Positions 6,215 through 22,299 of a DNA stretch of 25,402 bases are shown here, piece after piece. Location: UHGV virus genome UHGV-1747320. The stretch is one strand, 5' to 3'. The notes under the pieces were generated by a model that had not been told where the DNA came from, searched no databases, and saw only the letters and a list, made by a program, of their open reading frames with translations. The position numbers and the translations under genes were made by a program. Within the stretch, counting starts at the first letter, position 1. Each line of letters begins with the position of its first letter. The DNA is from a virus.

Positions 6215-6274
6215 CTCAAAAAGGTAAAATTCGTTCAACCCAATCGAAGAAAACAAGAATTTTTCTGCCGTCTT
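6215..6274. repeat. Copy A of the about 58-bp direct repeat (overlaps the stop and last about 19 codons of 6216..6779)
   Basis: See 5850-5908. Confidence 0.7.
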
Positions 6275-6779
6275 TCAACTTAAGTGTGACTAGGCAGGCA
6301 TCAACGCCATCTGACGTTCCCTCAATTTCGCGGCCGTCTGCCATGTAGACCCTTATAGATTGGCCGTTTTGATAAGCCTTGCGACATATCTTAAAAAAAT
6401 CACGACGTGATGGCTGGTTGTCTACATAGTCAGGGTGTATTGTTAGTCTCCCTTTGAAATCGTAATCAATGCCATCAATTACGCCTGATTCAATTGTGCT
6501 AATGCGCTCAAGTGGGAGCCTTATACGATTTTCTTTGTCAAATGGAGTTGGACAAAGGTCAACTTTGTTACGAGATGACATGAGACCATAAACGTACATG
6601 CAAAACACTTGGCCGTCTTCGAGAGTGACTCTTACAGGAAATTTAGCCCTCCGCCAGAAGAGCAAGGTGCGTTCAGCATGTTCGTAGTCTCGCGGCCATA
6701 CTTCAGCCGGTATGCCGTAGGTGATATCTTTCGTCGTCATATCATTATAAAGTGGTTGGCAATATGTCCATTGTACCAT
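6216..6779 (-). CDS. Hypothetical protein (187 aa; possible alternative start at 6740)
   Basis: Long ORF without recognisable catalytic motifs; the C-terminal stretch SIRVYMADGREIEG...LVTLKLKDGRKILVFFDWVERI looks beta-rich; no clear SD for either start. Confidence 0.55.
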   Translation of the reverse strand: MVQWTYCQPLYNDMTTKDITYGIPAEVWPRDYEHAERTLLFWRRAKFPVRVTLEDGQVFCMYVYGLMSSRNKVDLCPTPFDKENRIRLPLERISTIESGVIDGIDYDFKGRLTIHPDYVDNQPSRRDFFKICRKAYQNGQSIRVYMADGREIEGTSDGVDACLVTLKLKDGRKILVFFDWVERILPF

Positions 6780-7191: not shown

Positions 7192-7740
7192 TTACATGCT
7201 ATTCTGAGTTCTGTTGTAAATATCTTTTAAGAGGTCATCTCTTTTTATGTTTTTACAGACTTTGTCGAAACTTAATTCACCTGATGATATGCAGTTGTTG
7301 TATTTTTCGATAAAATTTTTTAATGCCAGATGATTTTTGAAAAGAAAAGAAAAACCATAGGGTGACGTGCTATCTCTTATCCATTTCCGAGCACTGGGAT
7401 AAGTGTATAAATTTGAATGCAACTCCAATTTTCCAGGGGCCACGCCATCACAGGAGTCCATAATAGCGAACATTTTTGATATATCAAAAGGATAAAAGAC
7501 TACTCCGCAATTTGTCCTGGTGCCTTCAATATCTTTCACGTATATATAGTGTTCATAACGATCTTTACGTGAAGTCTTTAACCTGTATTGTATTAGTTTG
7601 TGCTCTTCTTTTTGAGAAGAAGTTAGGTGTCTAGGGTTTTCTAAGCAAGATTTCTGTTTATTTTTTTTATGATAAAAATCCACACAGTCCTTTATTTCCT
7701 TTGCACTTAAAAATCTCTTATCAAAAGGTAAGTGACCCAT
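7192..7740 (-). CDS. Hypothetical protein (182 aa), AT-rich, no recognised domain
   Basis: ATG at 7740 (minus) with GGAGG 5 nt upstream; Lys/Asn/Tyr-rich composition. Confidence 0.6.
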   Translation of the reverse strand: MGHLPFDKRFLSAKEIKDCVDFYHKKNKQKSCLENPRHLTSSQKEEHKLIQYRLKTSRKDRYEHYIYVKDIEGTRTNCGVVFYPFDISKMFAIMDSCDGVAPGKLELHSNLYTYPSARKWIRDSTSPYGFSFLFKNHLALKNFIEKYNNCISSGELSFDKVCKNIKRDDLLKDIYNRTQNSM

Positions 7741-7844
7741 TCATGCCTCCGGTTCTAAACATAGGTAAGCCTACAAATATCGTTCAGCCAATCAAGATCT
7801 TTTTTCAGCCGGAGGTATATGTTTCAAAAAACGTGACGAATGTC

Positions 7845-7874
7845 ACATGCAGGTGCTCTCATACACCTGCATGT
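7845..7874 (-). terminator. Perfect 11-bp stem hairpin (ACATGCAGGTG / CACCTGCATGT) just downstream of the 7881..8447 stop; terminator or attenuator candidate
   Basis: Inverted repeat 7845-7855/7864-7874 with an 8-nt loop; on the minus strand a T-run follows about 13 nt later. Confidence 0.45.
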
Positions 7875-7880
7875 AGACTA

Positions 7881-8447
7881 TTAATCATTCAATAATCTAT
7901 ATTTTCTTTTGATTAAATCTTCACCTTTTTTGGTGAACACAAAACCAAATTGCGATTTTTTGTTTAGACGAAGGACTCTATTATCCAACGCATCGGTTGA
8001 TGGAATCAATGTTTGATCATCTATCCAATTAAGTAGCGTAAGAAAGTTCAGCAGCCTCAACGTTGTTGTGCGAAGCTCTTTCGATATATTTTCAATGCTG
8101 GCAATTCGTCTTTCTTTTTTCTCAGGTGGTACAGATAATTGTTCTTGAGATTTCGTGGATAGATAATCAATTTCGTTTGCTGCATCGAATGATATGTGAG
8201 GCGTAATTTTGCTAAAAAAGCCTTTCGCTGACTCACTTGATAATAAACCAGATCTATTCATATCGTTTGTTATTCTGTACAGGAGTGGACTGTGTTTCAT
8301 TTCAGGATAACGTTGATAAAAGTTAAGCAATTCAAAAGCAGCATTAGCACCAACAAGAAAATCAGAAGGATCGCTGACTTTCCAGAACGAATGATTTTTC
8401 TTAGCGCCAGTGGTGTCAACAAATGATAATTCTTTTAACCAACTCAT
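7881..8447 (-). CDS. Hypothetical protein (about 188 aa), AT-rich, no recognised domain
   Basis: Track ORF 7881..8480; ATG at 8447 is preferred because AAGGAG is 6 nt upstream. The start region lies inside an 11-bp-stem hairpin. Confidence 0.6.
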   Translation of the reverse strand: MSWLKELSFVDTTGAKKNHSFWKVSDPSDFLVGANAAFELLNFYQRYPEMKHSPLLYRITNDMNRSGLLSSESAKGFFSKITPHISFDAANEIDYLSTKSQEQLSVPPEKKERRIASIENISKELRTTTLRLLNFLTLLNWIDDQTLIPSTDALDNRVLRLNKKSQFGFVFTKKGEDLIKRKYRLLND

Positions 8448-8480
8448 GATGTGCTCCTTTCTAACAAGTGAGCACATCAT
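8446..8480 (-). promoter_or_regulatory. Hairpin sequestering the RBS and start codon of the 7881..8447 gene (arms ATGATGTGCTC / GAGCACATCAT)
   Basis: Perfect 11-bp inverted repeat 8446-8456/8470-8480 with a 13-nt loop; in the mRNA the AAGGAG SD and the AUG fall in the loop edge and 3-prime arm. Confidence 0.5.
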
Positions 8481-8512
8481 AGAATTAGTATATAGGGGGT
8501 AAATATGAAATG

Positions 8513-8791
8513 TTACGGCAACCTGCTCAGTATTTCCTCTAGATCTTTTTTTGTCATATTGGAGTTTTCATAGATGCGCATGATTTTCTCACGCGTCTTA
8601 GCGGAAACCCCAACGGCAGATGTAACTTTGTCAAATTCAGCCATAGTCATCGTCTCCAGAATGGCATTGATAACTTCAGCCTTAGACATCTTGATTTTTT
8701 TCTCTTTGAGTTTTATTTGAAATTTTCCAAGTTTTTCATTGGCCTTATCAGACAATGCCACTTGGCAATAAGTTGTTTTCTTTTCGCTCAT
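8513..8791 (-). CDS. Small protein (92 aa), possibly ribbon-helix-helix-like DNA-binding; translationally coupled to the helicase
   Basis: ATG at 8791 lies 2 nt after the helicase stop (8794-8796). The fold guess is from a strand-helix-helix-like pattern (TYCQVAL ... SKAEVINAILET) only. Confidence 0.55.
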   Translation of the reverse strand: MSEKKTTYCQVALSDKANEKLGKFQIKLKEKKIKMSKAEVINAILETMTMAEFDKVTSAVGVSAKTREKIMRIYENSNMTKKDLEEILSRLP

Positions 8792-8793
8792 AA

Positions 8794-10353
8794 CTAATCT
8801 CGTTTCAGAACTCCAAAATCGAATGCGCCATCAACAGGCAATACACCTTCTGCAAAGCCAGGTGTGGTGTCGATGATGTGTTTTCGCTCATAAGAGTGAG
8901 ACAACAGGTATTTGTTGCTAATGTCAATGAAATCAGTGATAAAACACACGTTTGCCTGATTCTTCTTGGCTCGTAAGCCACGACCGACACGTTGTCTCAT
9001 TTCAACTTCTGCTTTCCCACCACCAGCAAGAATGACCGCACCAACGCTTGGCACATCAACACCGACATCCAGAATAGTCGAGCCTATTAAAACATCTATT
9101 TCTCCAGACGCTAAACTGTTCAGCTTTGCTTGCCTTGTCGCTTGGTTCGATTCCCCATAGATGAAGTCAACTCTAAGGCCGGACTCCTTCATCATCTCCA
9201 TCAGGATTTGCCCGTGGCGTTTAAGACGAACCAGAGTCATGCAATTGAGAGAATGTTGCTTATAGAGCAATGCTTCGCGCACAATGGCCTCGTTACGTCC
9301 CAAATTATACACGATCCCCAACTGATAAGCCTTTTGGTAGGCAGTGCTCATACCTACTCTAAAATTAAGGTGTTTGTTGGCAAGTTCCGCCTTGATTCTG
9401 ACCTCGTCTGGCTTGTAGGCAACTTTATGATAAAGGAAGTACGGTTTTGCCAGAATGCCTCGATCAATCAGGTACTTTTCCGTGACTTTTATTTCAATTC
9501 GCCCAGCCACTGCCATCAGACGCATGTTGGCTTCCGTAGAATCCTTCATGAACGGCGTTGCCGTAAGCGCCAGACGATAGTCTGCGTTCACACATAATCT
9601 GGCAATGTCATAGAAATTAGAACCTGAAGACTCATGCGCCTCTTCCAGAATAAGCAGAGACACACTTGAAAGGAAGCGTTTCACCAAGTCCCGACGTTTG
9701 AGGTGGTAGCTCTTCTTATCTGGAGTTGCATCGCGTGGTGGTTCTTCAAGGAAACTTGCCAGAGTTTGAACTGTTGCGACGTTGATATGTCGTGATACCT
9801 GGAACTCACCCGAGCCAATGACTCCAACCTTTTGGTCCTTTAACCACGGTTCGCCATTTTCGGCGCGGTAGTCGATGGATCTCTGGAAGTTTTCGGCCAT
9901 TTGAAACATCAGAACAGAGCGGGTTGTTAAAAATAATGTCATTCGACCGATACGTGCAGCTGCTTTGCAGGCAACGTTAGATTTCCCACCACCAGTAGCG
10001 ATCTGGGCAATCATCATTCCCTCGCGAACTAGTGTTTCCACAGCCTGATCCTGATATGCATAATCAGGATTGTATGGGAATGGGTTAACCGCCGGATTTG
10101 GCTTTCCAAGCGCCGGGGCTTTGTCTTTGCGGATATGAACACATTTGATGCCCGCCTTGTTCAAGTTCGCCGCTACAGGCTTGGCAAAGCCAGCAGGGAA
10201 CGAGTTTTTACTCCAGTTGAACATCGTGCTTGTGCCCTTCCAGTCGCCAGTCTCGACTTCGTAGCTCAACATCTGTTGCACCAGTTGCTTTACCTTGTCA
10301 TCTGCGCCAGAAATAAGCGCATTAACTGCGTTAGATACAATCCGAACAGTCAT
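8794..10353 (-). CDS. Superfamily 2 (DEAD/DEAH-type) DNA helicase (519 aa)
   Basis: Motif I ATGGGKS, motif II LILEEAHE, motif III TATP, motif VI QRVGRGLR are present in the canonical order. Confidence 0.85.
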   Translation of the reverse strand: MTVRIVSNAVNALISGADDKVKQLVQQMLSYEVETGDWKGTSTMFNWSKNSFPAGFAKPVAANLNKAGIKCVHIRKDKAPALGKPNPAVNPFPYNPDYAYQDQAVETLVREGMMIAQIATGGGKSNVACKAAARIGRMTLFLTTRSVLMFQMAENFQRSIDYRAENGEPWLKDQKVGVIGSGEFQVSRHINVATVQTLASFLEEPPRDATPDKKSYHLKRRDLVKRFLSSVSLLILEEAHESSGSNFYDIARLCVNADYRLALTATPFMKDSTEANMRLMAVAGRIEIKVTEKYLIDRGILAKPYFLYHKVAYKPDEVRIKAELANKHLNFRVGMSTAYQKAYQLGIVYNLGRNEAIVREALLYKQHSLNCMTLVRLKRHGQILMEMMKESGLRVDFIYGESNQATRQAKLNSLASGEIDVLIGSTILDVGVDVPSVGAVILAGGGKAEVEMRQRVGRGLRAKKNQANVCFITDFIDISNKYLLSHSYERKHIIDTTPGFAEGVLPVDGAFDFGVLKRD

Positions 10354-10400
10354 AAACCTCTTTCCTTAGTGCCTTTTGTATGTTATTTGGCTATTATAAT

Positions 10401-13609: not shown

Positions 13610-13633
13610 TCGGTCTGGGAGCTTATTTAAAGA

Positions 13634-13688
13634 CCTGCTTCTGTATATATAAATAATAAGTAACTTATTAAATATATACGGAAGCAGG
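13634..13688. repeat. About 55-bp near-perfect AT-rich palindrome (CCTGCTTC...AATAAGT-A-ACTTATT...GAAGCAGG)
   Basis: Outer arms CCTGCTTC (13634-13641) and GAAGCAGG (13681-13688) with the perfect core AATAAGTAACTTATT (13655-13669); sits between the ParB module and terS. Confidence 0.65.
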
Positions 13689-13726
13689 CTTAATAAGACA
13701 TGCCCAGACCTAATTAAACAACCCAG

Positions 13727-21835: not shown

Positions 21836-22299
21836 AATACGATGCGCATCAGTTCAAACGTGCGGGGAATCGACTCAACAACAGCCAGAAAGCATTTAAG
21901 CGATATCTTATCCGGGACATGGAAAAGCTGGCGCGTTTGGTTGAGCGCCTCAGCCGTGCAATGGCCCCGCTGGAAACCGGATCTCTGGAGACAGCCATCT
22001 TTGCTAGGGTGATTAAAGAAGGTTATTCAGGGCTGCGCATTGAGCTTTCTGTGTCTGGAGCAAAACCACGTCAGGGGCATCCGGGGGTAGAAGTAGGTGA
22101 CTATGCTAAGTACATGGAGCTGGGTAAATATCGACTCGGTTATCTTTCTCGAATGAAGAACGTGACAAACCCACCAATTGTCGGTGTTAAACCTCGTGTT
22201 GGGCCACACTTTCTGGAAAGAGCGGTGGAAATTAGCGAGAAGCAGTTCTCAGAAGCGATTCTTGAGGCTGCCAGAAAAGCCGGTTTTACGAGAGGTTAA
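21826..22299 (+). CDS. Putative neck or tail-completion protein, HK97 gp10-like by pattern (157 aa)
   Basis: Overlaps the upstream gene by 10 nt; family resemblance is tentative. Confidence 0.55.
   Translation: MGLKYDAHQFKRAGNRLNNSQKAFKRYLIRDMEKLARLVERLSRAMAPLETGSLETAIFARVIKEGYSGLRIELSVSGAKPRQGHPGVEVGDYAKYMELGKYRLGYLSRMKNVTNPPIVGVKPRVGPHFLERAVEISEKQFSEAILEAARKAGFTRG

Follow-up and report, generated by a model that had tools for sequence, protein, structure and literature searches.

A conserved hairpin predicted to occlude the translational start of a winged-HTH gene in SSU5-type phage-plasmids carries a promoter-like element over its 5' arm

Results

The window, a stretch of 25,402 nucleotides from UHGV virus genome UHGV-1747320, is part of an SSU5/Cyrano-type phage-plasmid. 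On its minus strand, a gene encoding a 188-aa protein lies downstream of a 92-aa gene, and a hairpin at the junction of the two includes the translational start of the 188-aa gene. The features considered here are as follows (window coordinates).

7825..7874, minus strand: 3' end module, the terminator-like end of the transcription unit
7881..8447, minus strand: 188-aa gene (PHROG 13473, no assigned function)
8445..8447, minus strand: start codon of the 188-aa protein (basis: PGAP and start of homology), with A and U paired
8446..8456, minus strand: 3' arm of the core stem, GAGCACATCAT = GAGCACAUCAU, with G at 8445 next
8454..8460, minus strand: Shine-Dalgarno (SD) sequence AAAGGAG, 6 bases 5' of the AUG, straddling the loop/stem junction
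8457..8469, minus strand: loop of 13 nt, ACTTGTTAGAAAG = ACUUGUUAGAAAG, holding the AAAG of the SD
8470..8480, minus strand: 5' arm of the core stem, ATGATGTGCTC = AUGAUGUGCUC
8476..8481, minus strand: -10-like hexamer TATGAT, made up of T8481 and the first five bases of the 5' arm
8482..8489, minus strand: outer 5' extension of the stem in the MFE structure, ACUAAUUC, inside the N13 spacer
8495..8503, minus strand: T-tract/C-run block, TTTACCCCC, at about -34 to -26 of the putative promoter
8513..8791, minus strand: upstream 92-aa gene (PHROG 1466, no assigned function)

The 188-aa protein has an N-terminal domain without a recognised fold and a C-terminal winged-HTH domain. It gave no significant match in Pfam or PADLOC, and a PDB sequence search was also empty; a similarity to the KilAC (ANT) antirepressor domain (PF03374), noticed by eye, was sub-threshold only, scoring below the gathering score. 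A toxic product, as proposed in an earlier sequence-only reading of this DNA, gained no support from these searches. The same reading had regarded the gene as the first of an AT-rich island. The order helicase, 92-aa gene, 188-aa gene is instead common to nine lineages, and the 188-aa gene is followed by its own hairpin-plus-terminator. In this 3' module, a perfect hairpin of 11 bp (7874-7845) is overlapped by a second, short one (7848-7831), and a T-run completes the arrangement; the module is conserved, with its stem rewritten through compensatory changes between lineages, and the variable region begins past it (homology break at ~7767). A likeness between the 5' and 3' hairpins (common AGCACATGAT), found in a single lineage (L004), was treated as chance.

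The start of the 188-aa protein is annotated by PGAP, protein conservation starts there, and tblastn alignments to the clade with 42% identity start at the same Met. In the Cyrano record, the protein is given as a 199-aa form, starting at an ATG that is itself the 5' arm of the hairpin. The 188-aa start, taken earlier as the preferred AUG inside the 3' arm, is the right one, the 199-aa form being an annotation artefact caused by the palindrome.

With an inverted-repeat search, we recovered the perfect 11-bp stem and 13-nt loop described earlier, 8480-8470 being 100% complementary to 8456-8446. The 3' arm runs from the GAG of the SD through the SD-AUG spacer to the first two bases, A and U, of the start codon. 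The description of the SD as lying at the loop/stem junction holds, whereas its placement within the 13 loop nucleotides was slightly loose: the GAG is already paired, as the first three bases of the 3' arm. Beyond the core, ACUAAUUC pairs with 8438-8445 (GAGUUGGU, comprising the G of AUG, codons 2-3 and the first base of codon 4). This extension adds 8 pairs, reaching codons 2-4, and the full stem measures ~19 bp; two of the added pairs are G.U, so the extension pairs in the sense RNA only.

The 96-nt region folds at -29 kcal/mol, compared to -13.1 +/- 2.9 kcal/mol for 200 shuffles (z -5.4), none of which (0/200) folded as well. Perfect inverted repeats of at least 11 bp number 14 in the genome against ~0.8 in shuffles and are mostly terminators; the stem by itself is therefore not exceptional, but its position is. 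Opening of the translation initiation region (TIR) was calculated to cost 22.6 kcal/mol against a median of 7.6 (z 3.9), and among the 117 annotated genes of a complete relative the 188-aa gene ranked first for occlusion. The predicted opening cost fell from 25.4 kcal/mol at 37 C to 23.4 at 42 C and was about 22-23 at 42-45 C; at 42-45 C, the SD and the 3' arm were predicted to be at least 99% paired and the AUG ~97%, with substantial melting of the stem only above 80 C. A scan of Rfam 15 returned no family match for the hairpin (best overlap mir-1244, 18.6 bits versus a gathering score of 105.4, E 5.5). The hairpin was not listed in the terminator scan, its stem being followed by GAGUUGGUUAAAAG without a U-tract, and a search for an alternative pairing partner of the 5' arm found none.

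Each of the 59 loci from the two closest clades, comprising 24 distinct sequences, has the hairpin, and 87 of 5426 complete E. coli genomes carry it, every time as a single copy on a plasmid. AAAGGAG is the same throughout the E. coli and Klebsiella-type clades. All of the inner 9 core pairs form in 16/16 distinct sequences, and one compensatory swap (G-C/C-G) separates the clades. The outer stem showed AU/GC/GU variation; two loci (L042 and L059) have a G.U variant in the stem. Between identical arms, the loop is 13, 14 or 25 nt long. In most of the window's clade (not L040), the sense fold was ~7 kcal/mol more stable than the antisense fold.

Similar folds were predicted farther away. In 8 of the 9 syntenic lineages, the SD, usually together with the AUG, is inside the 3' arm of a stem-loop. 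Providencia, Pectobacterium, Moellerella and three further lineages (L073, L074 and L076) share the synteny and have unrelated arms (for example CUGCUUUGCCAUUUU/AAAAUGGCAAAGCAG and GUAUUCACUCCGU/ACGGAGUGAAUAC); in each, the 3' arm holds the SD, alone or together with the AUG, and opening costs are 12-28 kcal/mol. Altogether, the arm sequences are unrelated in seven lineages beyond the two closest clades. All lineages have long, unstructured loops rich in A and C; in the distant lineages these loops are CA-rich, 15-22 nt in length and different in sequence from lineage to lineage. Because the stem over the SD is kept while the arms are unrelated in most lineages, selection appears to act on an RNA structure and not on a DNA operator.

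In L003 the gene is missing and so is the hairpin, indicating that the hairpin travels with the gene. In two lineages, L045 and L072, the spacers are long (148 and 230 nt) and the stems degraded, but the block and the hexamer are retained; L045 also has a terminator-like hairpin upstream. Apparently, the hairpin decays where read-through is less likely. Translational control, as proposed earlier, was the right category: a conserved cis-acting structure occludes the SD and the start codon, and on the strength of the predicted folds the element very probably constitutes an RNA-level block to translation initiation.

A second pattern was found over the 5' arm. In 9/9 lineages, the C-run of the pyrimidine block ends exactly 13 nt before a hexamer that overlaps or abuts the 5' arm. 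This block-N13-hexamer spacing was established by a scripted check in five lineages and then in four picked by protein homology alone, as a blind test. At the offset of TATGAT, the other sequences read CATCAT, TACTAT, TATTAT, TAATAT, TATGAT, TAGTAT, TACTAT and TAAATT, giving the consensus TAnnAT (T 8/9, A 9/9, n, n, A 8/9, T 9/9). In the E. coli clade, the hexamer is invariant and the N13 spacer varies at ~8 of 13 columns (hand count). The 5' arm ends 2-10 nt past the hexamer in every lineage, and between block and stem there are ~0 to 15 nt, depending on which of the nine is considered. Assuming independent lineages, the joint chance of the block/hexamer pattern is ~1e-6 to 7e-5, an estimate that is generous because the lineages share descent.

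In a promoter scan, TTTACC-16-TATGAT scored as a 9/12 sigma-70-like site. The -35 region, CTTTTT with CCC at -28 to -26, departs from the sigma-70 consensus, and a TG extension is missing; the putative site would be weak or need an extra factor. The block-N13-hexamer arrangement occurs once in the 108.5-kb genome and thus does not represent a promoter class that can be recognised. For the hexamers of the two closest clades (TATGAT/CATCAT), which complement the ATC/ATG-ATG start region, the resemblance to a -10 element could result from pairing. In Moellerella, the hexamer is in an unpaired internal loop, and its resemblance hence does not come from pairing. From its position and consensus, we infer that the hexamer may be a functional -10 element. 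Alternatively, the pyrimidine block could act in RNA, for example as a single-stranded 30S/S1 landing site.

Other readings of these sequences were discarded. TATACT in the N13 region was rejected as a -10 element, since close relatives have TCTACT, TCAACT or TCCACC instead. Sigma-32, sigma-E, sigma-28, sigma-54 and a MerR-type 19-20 bp spacer were compared by eye, on their consensus sequences, as possible readers of the block, and none fitted across lineages. Pairing of the block with AAAGGAG as an anti-SD (CUCCUUU, CUUCUUU) was found in a few lineages only and is not conserved. A small upstream ORF through the 5' arm was rejected, as its frame differs between the loop-length variants.

Transcripts starting shortly past the hexamer and those reading through from upstream differ greatly in prediction. 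Opening of the TIR costs 1.9-8.0 kcal/mol (mean 5.2) in the short transcripts and 11.4-28.0 kcal/mol (mean 18.9) in the read-through transcripts. A scan for terminator-like sites between the 92-aa gene and the hairpin found none; together with the synteny, this makes read-through into the 188-aa gene likely.

Discussion

The position of a promoter-like element in the 5' arm suggests that only transcripts begun there are translatable. We lean, with modest confidence, towards a model of two transcripts, in which the read-through mRNA would be silent and the mRNA from the gene's own promoter translated. Transcripts from the upstream helicase and 92-aa genes would carry both arms; in such an mRNA the GAG of the SD and the AUG would be locked in the ~19-bp stem, and 30S binding would be blocked. 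Transcription from the gene's own promoter would start ~7 nt past TATGAT, near 8469, which is the first base of the loop. The 5' arm would be gone from this transcript, leaving an open 22-nt leader with a strong SD, and the mRNA would be translated. In this way, the hairpin would insulate the gene from read-through and tie protein output to its own promoter. The 188-aa protein would then be a regulator requiring a tight off state. Since the promoter-like element is inside the hairpin, the most likely mechanism is no longer opening of the stem by temperature, a ribosome or a protein, as the sequence-only reading, which did not include this element, had supposed; opening by a protein or a ribosome is still a serious competitor.

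Control by a promoter within a hairpin is a known phage strategy and would, as far as we know, be new for this element. According to section 29 of a review (PMC3014915), T4 genes e, soc, 49 and I-TevI have a TIR hairpin with a late promoter in its 5' strand; in read-through transcripts the helix sequesters the SD and/or the AUG, transcripts from the promoter are without the 5' strand and are translated, and in T4-related phages the arrangement is kept while the sequence varies. As at T4 gene e, an SD/AUG-sequestering helix would form in transcripts from upstream (predicted here); for the promoter over the 5' strand, the second feature of the T4 case, there is here a candidate in the sequence. 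The T4 promoter is gp55-dependent and late, with a motif (TATAAATA) recurring genome-wide, whereas the element described here combines a sigma-70-like hexamer with a unique T-tract/C-run block that occurs once per genome. In addition, the stem is much stronger here and belongs to a temperate phage-plasmid.

The same insulation logic is known from IS10/Tn10. In fold-back inhibition, an upstream segment of transcripts from outside pairs with the transposase TIR, whereas transcripts from the IS10 promoter begin inside the pairing segment and are translatable, which insulates the gene from read-through. IS10 differs from this locus in gene class and structure and adds antisense RNA control; we found no antisense partner for this locus. 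In mRNAs of type I toxins (hok, tisB, aapA1), a stable structure makes the full-length mRNA untranslatable and a 5'-shortened form is active. Local structure would likewise silence the full-length mRNA here, and the 5'-shortened form is predicted to be active. However, type I toxins are small membrane proteins activated by mRNA processing and controlled by antisense RNA, in contrast to a 188-aa winged-HTH protein, and nothing at the 188-aa locus pointed to a toxin or an antisense RNA. TIR structures of the lambda N-leader, cIII and the T7 early RNase III sites are remodelled by RNase III. They share with this locus a long stem at or beside the TIR of a phage regulator but rely on RNase III cleavage or alternative conformers, and the 5' arm here lacked an alternative partner in our search.

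Among the alternatives, a translational lock without an internal promoter fares best, although we doubt it. The gene would be transcribed from the operon only and translated at a very low level until the hairpin is opened or cut, by RNase III, by 30S/S1 standby binding at the A/C-rich loop or the pyrimidine block, by an RNA chaperone or helicase, or by a repressor or activator protein, maybe the gene's own product. The extreme and conserved occlusion fits such a lock equally well. Stems of 14-19 bp are within the size range of RNase III substrates and compatible with cleavage by this enzyme; the long A/C-rich loops and the conserved pyrimidine tract 5' of the stem would suit a standby site; and the phage-plasmid carries its own CspG. 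What the lock leaves unexplained is the occurrence of TAnnAT exactly 13 nt from the block in nine lineages and the ending of the 5' arm no more than 10 nt past the hexamer. A sequence-specific RNA-binding factor is unlikely, as arms and loops are both unconserved across lineages. Translational coupling to the 92-aa ORF was rejected as well: ~23 nt lie between its stop and the extended stem, and 32 nt between its stop and the core stem, too great a distance for a terminating ribosome to act directly.

It is distinctly improbable that the inverted repeat serves as a double-stranded DNA operator, through which a dimeric protein (the gene's own winged-HTH product or the 92-aa protein) would control transcription. 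The product has a MerR/RacA/Par-like DNA-binding fold, and the arms are near-invariant between two clades whose proteins are only 42% identical, the mean pairwise difference being 0.056, compared with 0.385 in the 3' hairpin of these loci. However, as the arms hold the SD, the start codons and the -10-like hexamer, most of this low divergence is accounted for. Symmetric changes in half-sites would also be expected from operator-repressor coevolution, but the G.U-compatible substitutions and the G.U-containing extension pair only in the sense RNA. Arms of 11-15 bp are long for a half-site, identical arms are spaced 13, 14 or 25 nt apart, and seven other lineages retain the stem-over-TIR architecture with unrelated arms. 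A multi-site operator or regulon was rejected, because the arm word and its variants recur no more than by chance in the window or in the 108.5-kb genome.

Lower still is the probability that the hairpin mainly serves mRNA protection or processing and has no role in translation, whether by stabilising the 5' end, by being a site of processing or by terminating the upstream gene. Stable hairpins do lie at both ends of the gene, and perfect hairpins, mostly terminators, are frequent in the genome; yet this stem is not followed by a U-tract, and the SD, with or without the AUG, is always in the 3' arm in eight lineages with unrelated sequences, which neither a stabiliser nor a terminator needs. 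An RNA thermometer, the stem of which would melt at host temperature or upon heat shock to free the SD and the AUG, is scarcely credible: as in known thermometers both lie within a helix of the 5' leader, its sole support, but ROSE and fourU elements are weak, mismatched helices typically melting at 30-42 C, and the thermosensor proposed earlier fails because this stem, perfect, G+C-containing, without mismatches or weak pairs and without an Rfam match, is predicted to stay closed to above 80 C.

Returning to the two-transcript model, a further step may be considered, which we think unlikely: block and hexamer together would form a dedicated factor-dependent promoter, whose putative reader, a regulator or sigma-like factor, would be a phage-plasmid or host product, and with the fail-safe hairpin they would make up a switch for an antirepressor-like winged-HTH protein.

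SSU5-type phage-plasmids are common in clinical and farm Enterobacteriaceae, and parts of the locus occur in 87 to 243 of the 5426 complete E. coli genomes. Such elements can carry resistance genes, for example dfrA51. By their titles and abstracts, the papers on SSU5 phage-plasmids returned by a literature search are genomic surveys. The locus offers a testable regulatory module, combining the most strongly locked start in the genome, a conserved DNA-binding protein and a specific predicted productive start site. It also provides a comparative example of an RNA structure that is selected while its sequence is replaced. As long transcripts are probably silent, RNA-seq coverage alone cannot show expression of the 188-aa gene. 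If the factor-dependent promoter is real, it would form with the hairpin a core part of the plasmid-versus-lytic decision circuit in SSU5-type phage-plasmids, and the promoter-in-hairpin design may recur at other phage-plasmid genes, such as the DUF4942 gene.

Genomic context of the 188-aa gene

Positions 7700-10400 of the window are 95-98% identical to Escherichia phage Cyrano and related phage records. Among 5426 complete E. coli genomes, 243 have a match, always on a plasmid of ~105-116 kb; no chromosome is matched. In NZ_CP126951.1 (108,542 bp), a complete relative, genes for the tail, capsid, portal and terminase occur alongside those for a RepB replication initiator and for ParB-family partition. 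Judged by sequence, these matches and gene contents indicate that the window is part of an SSU5/Cyrano-type phage-plasmid. The genes concerned here are as follows.

8794-10353, minus strand, DEAD/DEAH helicase gene
8513-8791, minus strand, 92-aa gene
65 nt, minus strand, spacer between the 92-aa and 188-aa genes
7881-8447, minus strand, 188-aa gene

The 188-aa gene had been taken for the first gene of an AT-rich island. That reading was not supported: the gene order is common to distant lineages, and homology to most E. coli relatives stops only at ~7767. The 188-aa start is the real start, because PGAP uses it and because both tblastn alignments to the diverged clade and protein conservation begin there. 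The Cyrano record conflicts with PGAP at 8448-8480 (minus strand), calling 199 aa from an ATG in the 5' arm of the hairpin described below; this upstream ATG exists only as the complement of CAT in the 3' arm.

NZ_CP126951.1 also carries its own cspG, rnhA, metG, apbC, nrdAB and thymidylate synthase genes (L048-L050), four tRNA genes, a TacA/GNAT toxin-antitoxin pair and the trimethoprim-resistance gene dfrA51. The ORF at 6216-6779 (minus strand) encodes a strong FljA homolog (Pfam Flag1_repress, E 4e-80; PHROG 1444), and most lineages have a homolog a few genes downstream of the 188-aa gene. FljA is the repressor of phase-1 flagellin, and repression of host flagellin by a phage-plasmid would merit attention. 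Upstream of the terminase region, a gap without coding sequence contains a long, imperfect inverted repeat (13612-13710; arms of 39 nt, 72% complementary). A close relative has it with a perfect 17-bp core (CCTGCTTCCGTATATAT) and a 21-nt AT-rich spacer, and it may serve in packaging or replication.

A hairpin over the translation initiation region

As the sequence-only reading had proposed, a perfect 11-bp stem lies at 8446-8480: on the minus strand, ATGATGTGCTC (8480-8470) is fully complementary to GAGCACATCAT (8456-8446) across a 13-nt loop. The Shine-Dalgarno sequence (SD) spans the loop/stem junction, with AAAG in the loop and GAG in the 3' arm, and the 3' arm also takes in the SD-AUG spacer and the first two bases of the AUG. 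Eight further pairs, two of them G.U, are predicted to extend the stem (8489-8482 with 8445-8438). The predicted fold has -29 kcal/mol, compared with -13.1 +/- 2.9 in shuffles (z -5.4). The genome contains 14 perfect inverted repeats of at least 11 bp, mostly terminators, against ~0.8 expected; the exceptional feature of this one is its position. We computed the free energy required to open positions -15 to +12 (opening cost) for all 117 annotated genes of NZ_CP126951.1. The 188-aa gene ranked first at 22.6 kcal/mol (median 7.6; z 3.9). The second most occluded start, outside the window, is that of a DUF4942 gene (71992-72035; L049 ~21992-22035; 19.6 kcal/mol), where a perfect 16-bp stem reaches the AU of the AUG and the extended -10-like TGAAATAAT overlaps the beginning of the 5' arm; it may share the promoter-in-hairpin design proposed here for the 188-aa gene.

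The hairpin had been suggested to act as a thermosensor, but the predictions do not support an RNA thermometer: at 42-45 C the SD and 3' arm stay at least 99% paired and the AUG ~97% paired, the opening cost falls from 25.4 (37 C) to 23.4 kcal/mol (42 C), and the stem does not melt substantially until above 80 C. By the usual relation between stability of the initiation region and expression, a lock of at least 20 kcal/mol renders full-length mRNA effectively untranslatable. Since the ORF is intact and conserved, its expression must take another route.

Conservation of the hairpin

Relative loci were collected via protein homology, which gave a set without bias toward the hairpin. Protein identity was 78-100% in the E. 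coli clade and 35-45% in the other close clade (Klebsiella, Enterobacter, Cronobacter, Salmonella and Citrobacter). The hairpin was present in all 59 loci of the two clades (24 distinct sequences); a single compensatory exchange, G-C to C-G, distinguishes the arms of one clade from those of the other. Nine inner pairs of the core were kept in 16/16 distinct sequences, a C-to-U change produced a G.U pair in L042 and L059, and AU, GC and GU variants of the outer stem go with synonymous codon-2 changes. Neither the sequence nor the length of the loop is fixed (mostly 13 or 14 nt; 25 nt in L043, with identical arms). Insertions between stem and ATG (1 nt in L040, 4 nt in L041) show that the AUG itself does not have to be buried in every case. 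L003, a locus without the gene, lacks the hairpin too.

In L003 (CP053388.1; reverse-complemented segment 3401-4300, ~330-370 nt in), a lipoprotein gene directly follows the 92-aa gene and has a small hairpin of its own, GGGAGAC-AAAGATGAA-GTCTCCC, whose 5' arm contains the SD and whose loop contains the AUG. In E. albertii plasmids of 62-64 kb (L012, NZ_CP034165.1, 1463-2031), the 188-aa gene is split by a frameshift and the hairpin is still intact.

Through weak tblastn matches, phage-plasmids of Providencia, Pectobacterium and Moellerella that share this gene order were identified, and an exhaustive profile search gave four further full-length lineages, P0040 to P0043.

Hairpin arms, placement of start signals and -10-like hexamers in the window's own clade and its relatives (5' arm / 3' arm)
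E. coli clade: ATGATGTGCTC / GAGCACATCAT
Klebsiella-type clade: (TTC)ATCATGTGCTC / GAGCACATGAT(GAA); hexamer CATCAT
Providencia: GUCGUACUAC / GUAGUAUGAC; AUG in 3' arm; hexamer TACTAT
Pectobacterium: UUAUUAUUCC / GGAAUAAUAA, outer helix UAUUUC / GAAAUA; SD at loop/stem junction; hexamer TATTAT
Moellerella: CUGCUUUGCCAUUUU / AAAAUGGCAAAGCAG, inner helix AUCUCGU / ACGAGAU; AUG in outer 3' arm, SD-like GAG in inner helix; hexamer TAATAT
Locus L074: GUAUUCACUCCGU / ACGGAGUGAAUAC; SD in 3' arm
Locus L073: CGCUCCGUU / AACGGAGCG; SD in 3' arm, AUG 4 nt past the stem
Locus L076: UUUCAUCUC / GAGAUGAGA; SD-like GAG in 3' arm

In Pectobacterium, the A is the only base of the AUG within the inner stem, and the G belongs to the outer helix. 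Predicted opening costs in the distant lineages were 12-28 kcal/mol. Because their arms are unrelated to those of the window while the architecture is the same, selection appears to act on RNA structure, unlike that on a sequence-specific DNA operator; further points against an operator are that the arms are variably spaced, that some pairs depend on G.U and that the arm word is absent elsewhere in the genome. Compared directly, sense and antisense stabilities gave a mixed picture: the sense strand was ~7 kcal/mol more stable in most of the window's clade, but not in L040.

A second perfect 11-bp hairpin of similar size lies right behind the stop codon (7874-7845, minus strand), followed by a short hairpin, GUGAC...GUCAC (GUGAU...AUCAC in relatives), with a T-run (7848-7825, minus strand); together they are probably a terminator or 3' stabiliser of the unit. 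The second stem, a good example of covariation, is largely rewritten between lineages by compensatory changes (mean pairwise arm difference 0.385 versus 0.056 for the 5' hairpin). A stem can thus be rewritten at the prevailing level of neutral divergence; the 5' arms are under extra constraints, mostly the SD, start codons and hexamer. Just past the terminator, ACCTCCGGCTGAAAAAAGATCTTGATTGGCT (~7786-7816, minus strand) is conserved in both close clades despite different flanking genes and may act as a promoter for the variable genes behind it or otherwise regulate them.

The 5' structure is real, strongly conserved and functionally placed. Translational control, the category originally proposed, is right, since the stem is conserved and placed over the SD and AUG; an RNA-level block to translation initiation is highly probable.

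A promoter-like element in the 5' arm

8503-8495, minus strand, T-tract/C-run block (TTTACCCCC)
8481-8476, minus strand, -10-like hexamer TATGAT

Such a block lies upstream of every stem (elsewhere as CTTTTTCCCC, CTTCTTCCCC, CTTTTTACCC and TTTTCACCC), and a script check of the first five lineages placed the hexamer exactly 13 nt past the end of the C-run. In a blind test, four later lineages found by protein search alone had TATGAT, TAGTAT, TACTAT and TAAATT at the same offset. Taking the nine lineages together, the hexamer reads T (8/9), A (9/9), n, n, A (8/9), T (9/9), which is how a sigma-70 -10 element is conserved. If independence is assumed, the first three distant matches have a chance probability of ~1e-6 to 7e-5, a significance that is overstated since the lineages are related. 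By hand count in the E. coli clade, the 13-nt spacer is the most variable stretch (~8/13 columns) and the hexamer is invariant. The distance from block to stem varies from ~0 to 15 nt, whereas the 5' arm always ends 2-10 nt past the hexamer. The hexamer of the two closest clades doubles as the complement of the start-codon region; the Moellerella hexamer lies in an unpaired internal loop and is therefore no side effect of pairing in that lineage.

A promoter scan independently returned TTTACC-16-TATGAT with a promoter-like score of 9/12. The sequence at -35 does not resemble that of a sigma-70 promoter. As the motif occurs only once in the genome, the putative promoter would be weak or factor-dependent. 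The pyrimidine block could instead act in RNA.

Two transcripts as a possible mode of control

A start 7 nt downstream of the hexamer would fall at ~8469, the first base of the loop. Modelled short transcripts from there had opening costs of 1.9-8.0 kcal/mol (mean 5.2), against 11.4-28.0 (mean 18.9) for read-through transcripts. Long helicase-operon transcripts, with both arms, would be translationally silent; those from the embedded promoter, without the 5' arm, would be translated. Two lineages, L045 and L072, have degraded stems and retain block and hexamer; their spacers to the upstream gene are long (148 and 230 nt), and L045 also has an upstream terminator-like hairpin. The degraded stems fit a hairpin that silences read-through transcripts.

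The loops of distant lineages (L011 1431-1452, L068, L069/L070, L073, L074, L076) are 15-22 nt long and strikingly CA-rich, e.g. CAACACCAACAACACACAACA and ACAAACACACACAA. On the short transcript they could serve as an unstructured leader or translational enhancer, and on the long one as a site of the standby or Hfq type. The main rival, which we consider less likely, is a lock that RNase III, standby ribosomes or some other trans factor would open.

Promoter-in-hairpin discrimination of transcripts, a known mechanism, is the most likely one; the balance tips slightly in favour of the full two-transcript model with its putative promoter. The proposed control would resemble fold-back inhibition in IS10, which follows the same two-transcript logic. 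This logic is documented for the phage T4 genes e, soc, 49 and I-TevI, of which hairpin-bearing long transcripts are silent and embedded-promoter transcripts are translated (PMC3014915, section 29). The model gives a sharp, testable prediction of a transcription start at ~8469, and such discrimination would be newly seen in SSU5/Cyrano-type phage-plasmids, which are widespread but little studied.
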